Sequence record: PQ505080.1
Source: Escherichia phage HMD-6
Reading direction: 5' to 3' (one strand)
Length of the DNA: 64,000 nt
Shown: positions 26,226 to 26,599 of the stretch, in pieces
Position numbering within the stretch: the stretch's first letter is position 1
Layout: the number at the start of each line of letters is the position of its first letter
Position numbers and translations under genes: made by a program
Notes under the pieces: generated by a model
Database searches by the model: none
Seen by the model: only the letters and a program-made list of their open reading frames with translations
What the model was told of the DNA's origin: nothing

Positions 26226-26530
26226 ATTATGGGTAGTGTCGGCCCTTCATTGGCACTCGCCTACGAGGGGCGAGATGCCGGGCCTCCATAGTGCACACAA
26301 TGACAGAAGTGCATACATGCAGGCCTGTTAACATGTGTGGGAGCGAAGCGATAGCGCAGGCCAAAGGCCGAGCACTAATGTGGACCACCGACGAAAGCTT
26401 GCCAGCGCCGGAAGGAGTCGGTTGAGAGCCTCCCGCGCGAGTTCGGATAAAGTTTATGTGTGGAAACTGACAAGAAGGCCCCTAAATCGCTCCACAGCTA
26501 TATAAACTATACCAAGTAAGGCAATCGCAC
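26226..26530 (+). other. GC-rich ORF-free segment, candidate structured ncRNA (class unknown)
   Basis: No ORF of 60 aa or more on either strand in 25940-26599; nested hairpins e.g. GGCCC..GGCA-CTCGCC-TACGAGG-GGCGAG-TGCC-GGGCC (26231-26274), TGCAC/GTGCA, ACATG/CATGT, GGCC-AAA-GGCC. Confidence 0.3.
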
Positions 26531-26599
26531 CAGTTCGATAGAAAAGCTCGTTACAAAGCGATACAGTGAGTTTTTCTATAACTTGAAGAGGAGGCTGCT

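Follow-up and report, generated by a model that had tools for sequence, protein, structure and literature searches.

The sequence of Escherichia phage HMD-6 (PQ505080.1) was analysed over a stretch of 64,000 nt, referred to here as the window, and coordinates without another label are positions in it. Between the genes for a 116-aa helix-turn-helix (HTH) protein and a 192-aa protein, the window contains an untranslated gap of ~660 nt, and within this gap lies a GC-rich, hairpin-dense element that is the subject of this report. The element is conserved and non-coding, contains base pairing with covariation, displays a strand bias, and is shared with plasmids. The order of genes around it is RNA ligase (minus strand), PNK-like protein, phosphoesterase, 116-aa HTH protein, non-coding gap, 192-aa protein, small genes, and seven tRNA genes, with the element ~2 kb 5' of the tRNA cluster. 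In all, 118 phage records match positions 25900-26700, with identities of 80-99% (90% or more in 117 of them); every one is rV5-like (genus Vequintavirus), and the segment is part of the early region of an rV5-like coliphage. Both flanking proteins (116 aa and 192 aa) are confined to the same 118-119 records; Seunavirus and Mydovirus have another gene order at the locus, in a neighbourhood without a long intergenic gap. Eighteen GenBank records (MG0656xx, named 'Campylobacter phage ...' and marked UNVERIFIED) consist of rV5-like coliphage sequence with 92-97% identity over the element, and are probably mislabelled or contaminant assemblies.

Composition, coding potential and conservation

The GC content is 0.605 over 26236-26440 and 0.55 over 26236-26537, compared with 0.207 in the AT-rich tract immediately upstream, 0.413 in the gene at 26600-27178, and 0.435 in the window as a whole, in keeping with the rise over the surroundings described in an earlier note on this DNA. 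The absence of any open reading frame (ORF) of 60 aa or more, also claimed there, holds as well, since the longest overlapping ORFs are of 56 aa (26335-26505, plus strand) and 53 aa (26227-26388, minus strand). The hairpins that it reported are real, but its example at 26231-26274 lies ~10 nt away from the actual stems, and its boundaries have to be redrawn: the segment was said to begin at 26226, whereas conservation relative to a divergent phage (IMGVR_UViG_3300010279_000001 from IMG/VR; hereafter L003) resumes at ~26236-26238, and a leader hairpin with a ribosome-binding site, distinct from the rest, occupies the final ~60 nt (26538-26599). What the note had called an operator-like array upstream does consist of repeats, but the combination of four dyad repeats, an AT-rich tract, and an HTH_36-type protein resembles an origin module more.

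A protein-coding explanation, in which the element encodes a small protein such as the 56-aa ORF annotated in some records (e.g., BASEL records), is hardly credible. The frame is open in most phage copies, and two indels preserve it. However, the two annotated short ORFs have 14/23/19 and 9/8/7 variable sites at the three codon positions, with no third-position excess, as opposed to 34/21/89 for the real gene next to them, and the 56-aa ORF has 45 non-synonymous versus 11 synonymous distinct codon changes, compared with 64 versus 83 in that gene. The GTG start of the ORF has no Shine-Dalgarno (SD) sequence before it, and the frame is interrupted by a premature stop in L003, shifted in L036, and lost in the plasmids. 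The codon counts and broken frames led to this explanation being dropped; a short conserved protein, which the earlier note had set against a structured element, is not encoded here. The suggestion of a structure of no catalogued class stood up, as Rfam 15, with its families for group I introns, tmRNA, RNase P, 6S RNA, riboswitches, and c4/CI antisense RNAs among others, had no match at gathering scores over 26000-26600. At E<=10 over 25900-28200, Rfam returned only sub-threshold, chance-level matches to rli43 (20.8 bits, with a gathering score of 100) and PhrS (14 bits), while ARAGORN found neither tRNA nor transfer-messenger RNA in the element. Elsewhere in the window, Rfam recognises a group I intron and tRNAs. 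Likenesses to RNase P CR-I/CR-V, the 16S 530 loop, the ops element, DnaA boxes, integron attC, and type III antitoxin repeats were dropped as too weak to test or unsupported.

The element is present in 118/118 Vequintavirus records at identities of 90.9-98.9%. Its 106-nt core is 91% identical in L003, a phage whose 192-aa protein is only 81% identical, and 95% identical in L004, compared with 82-89% (L003) and 87-92% (L004) for the immediately flanking genes (PNK, phosphoesterase, HTH, and the 192-aa gene); two genes that lie further downstream equal the core in conservation. No similarity to the window is detectable in L003 over the 116-aa gene, the repeats, or the AT-rich tract; it returns at ~26236-26238 and continues to the start codon. 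The region L003 1819-2640, which stands in place of window 25589-26235, encodes an HTH protein of 143 aa and contains another A-rich tract and five dyad repeats (GATACATATTTGCATCAGAT) unrelated to those of the window; one breakpoint of this swap follows the phosphoesterase gene, and the other coincides with the start of the structured element.

Outside the Vequintavirus records, an exact-core scan of IMG/VR gave one relative only. A scan of 185,579 species genomes gave three matches (one inspected in unrelated sequence, the others in unrelated metagenome-assembled genomes), and a metagenome scan gave only rV5-like phages and the 13-kb element described below, plus chance matches. Comparison by blastn with 5,426 E. 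coli genomes found no chromosomal copy, which rules out an origin of the element from the host (REP, ERIC, or a captured host RNA gene).

Conserved pairing and the invariant loop

The features of the gap and of the module upstream of it are collected in Table 1. Covariation across relatives, named in the earlier note as a way of checking the structure, was examined, and the pairing is both kept and covaries. Among 18 distinct phage copies, variable sites occur at 12/94 paired positions versus 105/246 in the remaining element (Fisher p = 6e-8).

Table 1. Positions of the element, its parts, and the upstream module in the window
Feature	Position	Strand	Description
116-aa HTH protein	25589-25939	+	putative initiator or regulator, paired with the downstream repeats
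Four 17-bp dyad-symmetric repeats, TGTCCGTnnnACGGACA	26015-31, 26036-52, 26057-73, 26079-95	.	spacing 21-22 bp; iteron- or operator-like
AT-rich tract	26096-26235	.	GC 0.207, two GATC sites; candidate DNA-unwinding region
5' compound hairpin Me	26236-26287	+	stems 26241-45/26280-84 and 26252-61/26269-79; A26275 bulged
Variable linker	26288-26333	+	dispensable hairpin (GUGCAC...GUGCAU); from alignment of 20 phage copies
Core domain	26334-26439	+	predicted three-way junction of H1, small hairpins, and Ha
Closing helix H1	26334-43 : 26430-39	+	UGUGUGGGAG with CUCCCGCGCG; three invariant U·G pairs
Apical hairpin Ha	26387-92/26417-22	+	covarying stem
Invariant 25-nt block	26393-26417	+	GAAAGCUUGCCAGCGCCG(G/U)AAGGAG; loop presented by Ha; G26417 belongs to the Ha closing pair
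3' domain	26440-26537	+	partly common to plasmids; second UGUGUGG, GCCCCUAAAU, small A-U hairpin
GCCCCUAAAU	26478-87	+	within the 3' domain (alignments)
Leader hairpin F, 12 bp	26538-49/26568-79 (within 26538-26599)	+	inverted repeat, followed by a ribosome-binding site at ~26586-94

The compound hairpin Me folds at -29.2 kcal/mol (z = -3.55 with RNA and -3.61 with DNA parameters, relative to shuffles), and its stems are invariant in the 18 distinct phage copies save for one gapped cell. The plasmid NZ_CP020521 retains the same hairpin through two double changes, from G-C to U-A at 26253/26278 and 26259/26271. In the linker that follows, bases 26297-26314 are deleted in at least four phages; shorter matches were obtained for MaxTheCat, O157 typing phage 5, Pr121LW, and the records named Campylobacter phage C2 and A135.

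Within the core, which includes the small hairpin GGCC-AAA-GGCC at 26359-69, the closing helix H1 is part of the alifold consensus and of the single-sequence minimum free energy (MFE) structures of both the window and the plasmid CP134895 (L011). The comparison of phage with plasmid copies is the most telling evidence: besides the changes in Me, three pairs of Ha are altered on both sides (A-U to G-C, C-G to U-A, and A-U to C-G), with G·U intermediates in L003 and L004. On the alignment A5, 95.5% of the cells of Ha are paired versus 34-54% with slid partners, and its covariation score was reached by 0/500 shuffles. A different pairing suggested by alifold on a phage-only alignment (GCUUGCC with GGU...GAGC) was rejected, being broken in plasmids whereas Ha covaries. 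The 25-nt block that Ha presents is purine-rich on both flanks, includes an SD-like AAGGAG, and occurs only once in the window. Apart from one G/U position, no phage copy checked and no core-bearing plasmid copy departs from it; of its unpaired positions (26393-26416), 1/24 varies among the 18 distinct phage copies.

Downstream of the core, the second UGUGUGG (26457-63) could pair with CCGCGCG in place of the upstream copy, and two mutually exclusive folds are predicted from these alternative partners. The small A-U hairpin (26501-04/26508-11) has compensatory changes at two pairs in L003 and at one in L004, and is broken in L018, L034, and L038. Leader hairpin F contains a G·U pair in 18/18 copies and a C-G to U·G change in L004; it is phage-specific, absent from the plasmids, and not terminator-like, and the ribosome-binding site beyond it serves the 192-aa gene starting at 26600.

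Compared with shuffles, the whole 374 nt gives z = -2.14 on the plus strand and -1.54 on the minus strand. The alifold energy is -93.7 on the plus strand versus -86.5 on the minus strand, and the distinct non-Watson-Crick states comprise 11 G·U versus 4 A·C. Single-sequence thermodynamics are modest and therefore cannot carry the case alone; it is carried by the comparative evidence.

Satellite-like plasmids and the origin-like module

Matches to the element were found on six E. coli plasmids, in stretches without an annotated gene, and on two metagenome contigs (13.9 and 15.5 kb). The plasmids comprise a group of ~13 kb, namely NZ_CP020521 (L005/L007), NZ_CP035869 (L009), CP148565 (L010), NZ_CP178698 (L012), and CP134895 (L011), and the 39.6-kb NZ_CP043822 (L006), which contains three copies of the match; the loci of this family include L016 and L020 as well. 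The ~13-kb plasmids are circular and non-mobilizable. Among the products of these elements are an rV5-like major head protein, a protein with 50% identity to the one encoded by window 46949-47572, a neck/tail-completion protein 44% identical to the product of 38468-38890, and a tape-measure protein related to 45044-46297; over these three regions, and with a baseplate-like protein included, identity to the rV5 proteins ranges from 25 to 50%. Two or three HTH proteins, including a winged HTH (wHTH) protein, are also encoded. A terminase, portal, or polymerase was not identified in the satellite elements, nor was any replication gene other than that of the wHTH protein, and Rfam at E<=1 found nothing in them except a 23.6-bit ctRNA match elsewhere. 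Judged by their gene content, the ~13-kb elements are probably plasmid-borne satellites of rV5-like phages, living as iteron plasmids; no paper describing such a satellite family was found in the literature. The sharing of the core with these satellite-like plasmids is the most informative fact about it, and the core is therefore probably a signal recognised by phage machinery.

In the plasmids, a characteristic order was observed, with the plasmid's own iterons followed by a conserved C-rich/G-rich segment, by zero to three hairpin cassettes, and then by the core shared with the phage. The cassettes, seen upstream of the core in L005 (1000-1560), L006, L009, L010, L012, L016, and L020, are unrelated in sequence, each ends in TGTGTGG(G), and their combinations and orders differ. 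Their hairpins are retained via double changes (e.g., UUUAGCU/AGCUAAA versus UUAAGCU/AGCUUAA). An extra local hairpin, CCCGCGC-loop-UGUGUGGG, is present in L009 and L010, and in the variant L011 (1090-1500) Ha and its loop are replaced by another extended hairpin (GUCCGGAU...AUCCGGAC) with both H1 arms kept. A search for a phage matching the L011 variant hairpin found none, and gave only a 27-nt cassette match in another non-coding region. That region (L041; MN850649.1 90507-93533, outside the window) is a ~2.5-kb gene-free stretch of rV5-like phages, drawn as a 'non-coding' box in the rV5 paper. It has several short blocks in common with the non-coding DNA of the plasmids, including 24 nt at 92% in all plasmids and the 27-nt hairpin cassette at 96% in L011.

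The cassette organisation raises the question of whether the element could be a functionless mosaic, made of REP-like palindromic cassettes whose spread and reshuffling rely on recombination at the GT-rich TGTGTGG and which are merely tolerated in intergenic DNA. The unrelated cassettes ending in TGTGTGG(G), with a number and order that vary among plasmids, are consistent with this, as are the deletion of one hairpin in several phages and the match of the L011 cassette to a hairpin in the phage's other non-coding region. However, the core and its 25-nt loop are nearly invariant in all core-bearing copies checked (phages otherwise up to 18% apart, and seven plasmid or contig copies), the stems are strongly constrained, and the element occurs in every one of the 118 phage records, making a mosaic of this kind quite improbable.

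The shared block could alternatively be a pac packaging site, that is, a DNA signal for the helper terminase. Known satellites without a small terminase of their own carry the cos or pac site of their helper (e.g., P4/P2 and cos-type phage-inducible chromosomal islands (PICIs)), and such a site is the usual thing that satellites share with helpers. On this explanation the satellites must present a signal for the helper terminase, because no terminase was identified in them; no portal was found in them either, and the element is the largest non-coding block common to plasmids and phage. The reported circular permutation of rV5-like genomes, meaning headful packaging (PMC8407724), also counts in its favour. 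Nevertheless, sites of the pac and cos kind are read in duplex form; stems in them would hence not be expected to change in a compensatory way, and the covarying stems are left unexplained. In addition, the element lies in the early region, L011 swaps the invariant hairpin yet retains the scaffold, and the pac site could instead be one of the other short blocks that the plasmids have in common with the large non-coding region of the phage. A packaging function is thus considered improbable.

The module upstream of the element bears on another explanation, in which the element is a single-strand initiation signal forming the constant half of a replication origin, with the HTH protein, iterons, and AT-rich tract as the variable half. 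The initiator would open the AT-rich tract, and the plus strand of the GC-rich segment (the lagging-strand template of the rightward fork) would fold into hairpins that recruit a replisome composed of a T7-like gp4 primase-helicase and PolA; alternatively, a local transcript would form a primer or R-loop. Satellites would keep their own initiator and iterons for plasmid life, and the phage core would let the helper replisome amplify them. The HTH/repeat/AT-rich module differs in the window type, L003, and the plasmids, so a variable module stands beside a constant structured module in three settings, and the order of HTH protein or initiator, iterons, AT-rich DNA, and element recurs in all three with unrelated iterons. 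The layout of an iteron origin of the lambda ori, RK2, or RSF1010 type, defined by three or more phased direct repeats next to an AT-rich tract, is found in the module flanking the element, in L003, and in each plasmid. In L003, the HTH protein changes together with the repeats, and the swap stops at the start of the element, but this boundary may just part two unrelated neighbours. Adjacency in the plasmids, where the element sits upstream of the operon promoters, carries little weight because all cis elements there are inside one 2.9-kb non-coding region. The 116-aa protein is labelled 'replication initiation protein' in RefSeq records and 'transcriptional regulator' in others; it falls just under the Pfam cut-offs for HTH_36 (24.5 bits, cut-off 25) and DUF6945 (27.1 bits, cut-off 28), and has no NCBIfam match.

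Motif distributions are also consistent with an origin. TGTGTGG occurs 17 times in the 13.7-kb plasmid L007 versus 1.3 expected (0/200 shuffles), and its orientation flips at the iterons and again roughly opposite them, as would a motif with origin-to-terminus polarity. The window has 20 occurrences versus 10 expected, with a local flip at the repeats; nine of them are within 3 kb (23516-26463), mostly on the minus strand to the left of the repeats and on the plus strand to the right. The pentamer GTGTC (window, at 26236-26240, and plasmid) or GGGTC (L003) overlaps the 5' boundary of the element, the block conserved in L003 starting inside GTGTC at ~26238. Both are pentamers preferred by the T7 primase, a likeness that serves as a lead only. 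The phage rV5 encodes a gp4-type primase-helicase and a PolA polymerase, and an analysis of its skew saw only changes tied to the direction of transcription and left the origin unplaced (PMC3606486). Regarding single-strand folding, the robust stems are all Watson-Crick and Me is significant with DNA parameters, whereas the core scores z = +0.27, and the lagging-strand assignment presumes an origin at the iterons. Moreover, the three T·G pairs of H1 and hairpin F are unexplained by a DNA role, and the 200-360 nt that are conserved are long for a priming signal. An origin-linked function is possible but doubtful.

Several other features of the surrounding DNA can be recorded. A second GC-rich (0.51) stretch, for which the related records that were checked have no annotation, is found at 27700-27985, with an 80-aa gene on one side and a consensus promoter on the other; it shares with the studied element the motif ATAGTGCAC(C)ACA, has no Rfam match, is overlapped by mechanical minus-strand ORFs of 104 and 93 aa, and shows 91-96% identity in divergent relatives, which is the level of the neighbouring genes. 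Beside the tRNA genes, window 22416-25541 clusters an RNA ligase, a PNK-like P-loop protein, a metallophosphoesterase, and a SIR2-type deacetylase, and by its predicted proteins looks like an RNA-repair or counter-defence set. A 99-nt tRNA-like gene at 28946-29044 is given a four-base anticodon (atcc) by ARAGORN and only 35.5 bits by Rfam, and is annotated as 'tRNA-OTHER' in phage pangalan. The group I intron (Rfam RF00028, 81.4 bits, full-length match) is located at 30809-31087, 3' of the tRNA cluster.

Functional interpretation and comparison with known systems

The interpretation tentatively preferred here is that the plus strand forms a structured RNA domain whose invariant loop would be a platform for a phage factor, possibly combined with an alternative-pairing switch acting on the downstream message. 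This is placed slightly ahead of an origin-linked DNA signal because the U·G helices, the strand bias, and the leader hairpin favour RNA. As RNA, the core folds to H1 plus arms (z = -1.38; L011 z = -3.18), whereas with DNA parameters it does no better than shuffles and L011 loses H1; the three U·G pairs of H1, together with the leader hairpin, thus favour a plus-strand RNA in these folding models. In the phage, where the ribosome-binding site of the 192-aa gene follows and no terminator is predicted on the upstream side, the position is compatible with a 5' leader or a processive antitermination RNA of the nut, put, or EAR type. The element lies on the sense strand of its flanking genes with no predicted terminator before the 192-aa gene, and is therefore expected to be transcribed.

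A number of observations weigh against this interpretation. The single-sequence score of the 106-nt core in the window is weak, the MFE structure of L003 is without H1, and there are few independent covariation events because most of the covariation is one phage-versus-plasmid split. Me, Ha, and the satellite cassettes are essentially without G·U pairs and fold equally well as DNA. Neither a consensus sigma-70 promoter nor an intrinsic terminator was predicted on the plus strand of 25555-26960, so that no discrete RNA is delimited; upstream of the plasmid copies none was predicted either at the thresholds of the tools, which leaves room for weak or phage-specific signals. A -10-like TATTAT at 26225-30 is not retained in L003. 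The plasmids carry near-consensus sigma-70 promoters 3' of the element, before the first ORF, and because these promoters lie downstream the element is not an obvious 5' leader there. No transcript data for the element were found in the literature, nor anything relevant on rV5 satellites, Vequintavirus non-coding RNA, or transcriptomes.

We infer that the element acts as RNA, that a factor binds the loop, and that binding has consequences for the phage or its satellites. In such a mechanism, a factor encoded by the phage, or possibly by the host, would recognise the invariant loop as its platform. Either the upstream or the downstream UGUGUGG would pair with the 3' arm CCCGCGCG, giving two exclusive folds, through which binding of the factor could be coupled to the way in which the downstream message is processed, stabilised, or translated. 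Having this core too, the 13-kb satellite-like plasmids could bind the same helper factor, which they might use to sense or exploit infection, or which they might titrate.

A composite of the DNA and satellite observations is also conceivable, although rather unlikely. The element would be a helper-satellite adaptor, a modular array of hairpin cassettes bounded by the polar UGUGUGG, that recruits the rV5-type (T7-like) replisome or another phage machine beside an interchangeable initiator/iteron module, and it would have been copied by undescribed plasmid-borne satellites for amplification or mobilisation. If this were true, the element would represent a new kind of origin accessory element and its carriers a new satellite family.

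The rV5-like phages are among the commonest coliphage isolates and are used in biocontrol and therapy. The occurrence of the core in 13-kb plasmids whose genes for capsid, neck, baseplate, and tape-measure proteins are rV5-like suggests that a virulent E. coli myovirus has a family of satellites, and the shared element is the obvious candidate meeting point of satellite and helper. The 25-nt invariant loop on its covarying stem offers a mutable handle for finding the phage factor. Should the element act as RNA, it would be a new structured RNA family, and should it act as a DNA signal, a new origin or packaging accessory.

The element is a new family, absent from Rfam, and by sequence it is a member of none of the systems with which it was compared. 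Nearest in form are lambda nut/boxB and HK022 put, short conserved stem-loops of early transcripts whose fixed loop is likewise displayed for a factor, and the stable RNAs of T4 (species 1 and 2), which lie within a tRNA region, whereas the element is located upstream of the phage tRNA cluster. It has no sequence or Rfam match to any of these RNAs, and in the plasmids it stands upstream, not downstream, of the operon promoters. The ColE1 RNA II and the transcript-primed origins of T7 and T4 would resemble it in having a folded transcript beside an origin, with structure that matters for initiation, and the rV5 replisome is of the T7 type. In those systems, however, transcription enters the unwinding or transition region, while here the structured plus strand leads away from the AT-rich tract and no promoter was found.

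By layout, the nearest systems are the ssiA/ssiB signals of RSF1010 oriV and the G-site of R1, in which iterons, an AT-rich segment, and conserved hairpins of one defined strand adjoin an origin; the element is likewise strand-specific and lies beside iterons and AT-rich DNA. The RSF1010 and R1 hairpins are read by a dedicated primase (RepB' and DnaG, respectively). These signals are 40-140 nt long and experimentally defined, compared with 200-360 nt conserved in the present case; there is no sequence similarity, and the element differs in its predicted U·G-rich closing helix, which would work only in RNA. By logic, the nearest are the cos sites of P4/P2 and of the cos-type PICIs and the late-promoter sites of P2/P4, in which a near-identical non-coding block is likewise found in a phage and in an element with part of a virion. 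All of these sites are duplex DNA without conserved hairpins, in contrast to the covarying stems and fixed loop of the element shared by the rV5-like phages and the satellite-like plasmids.

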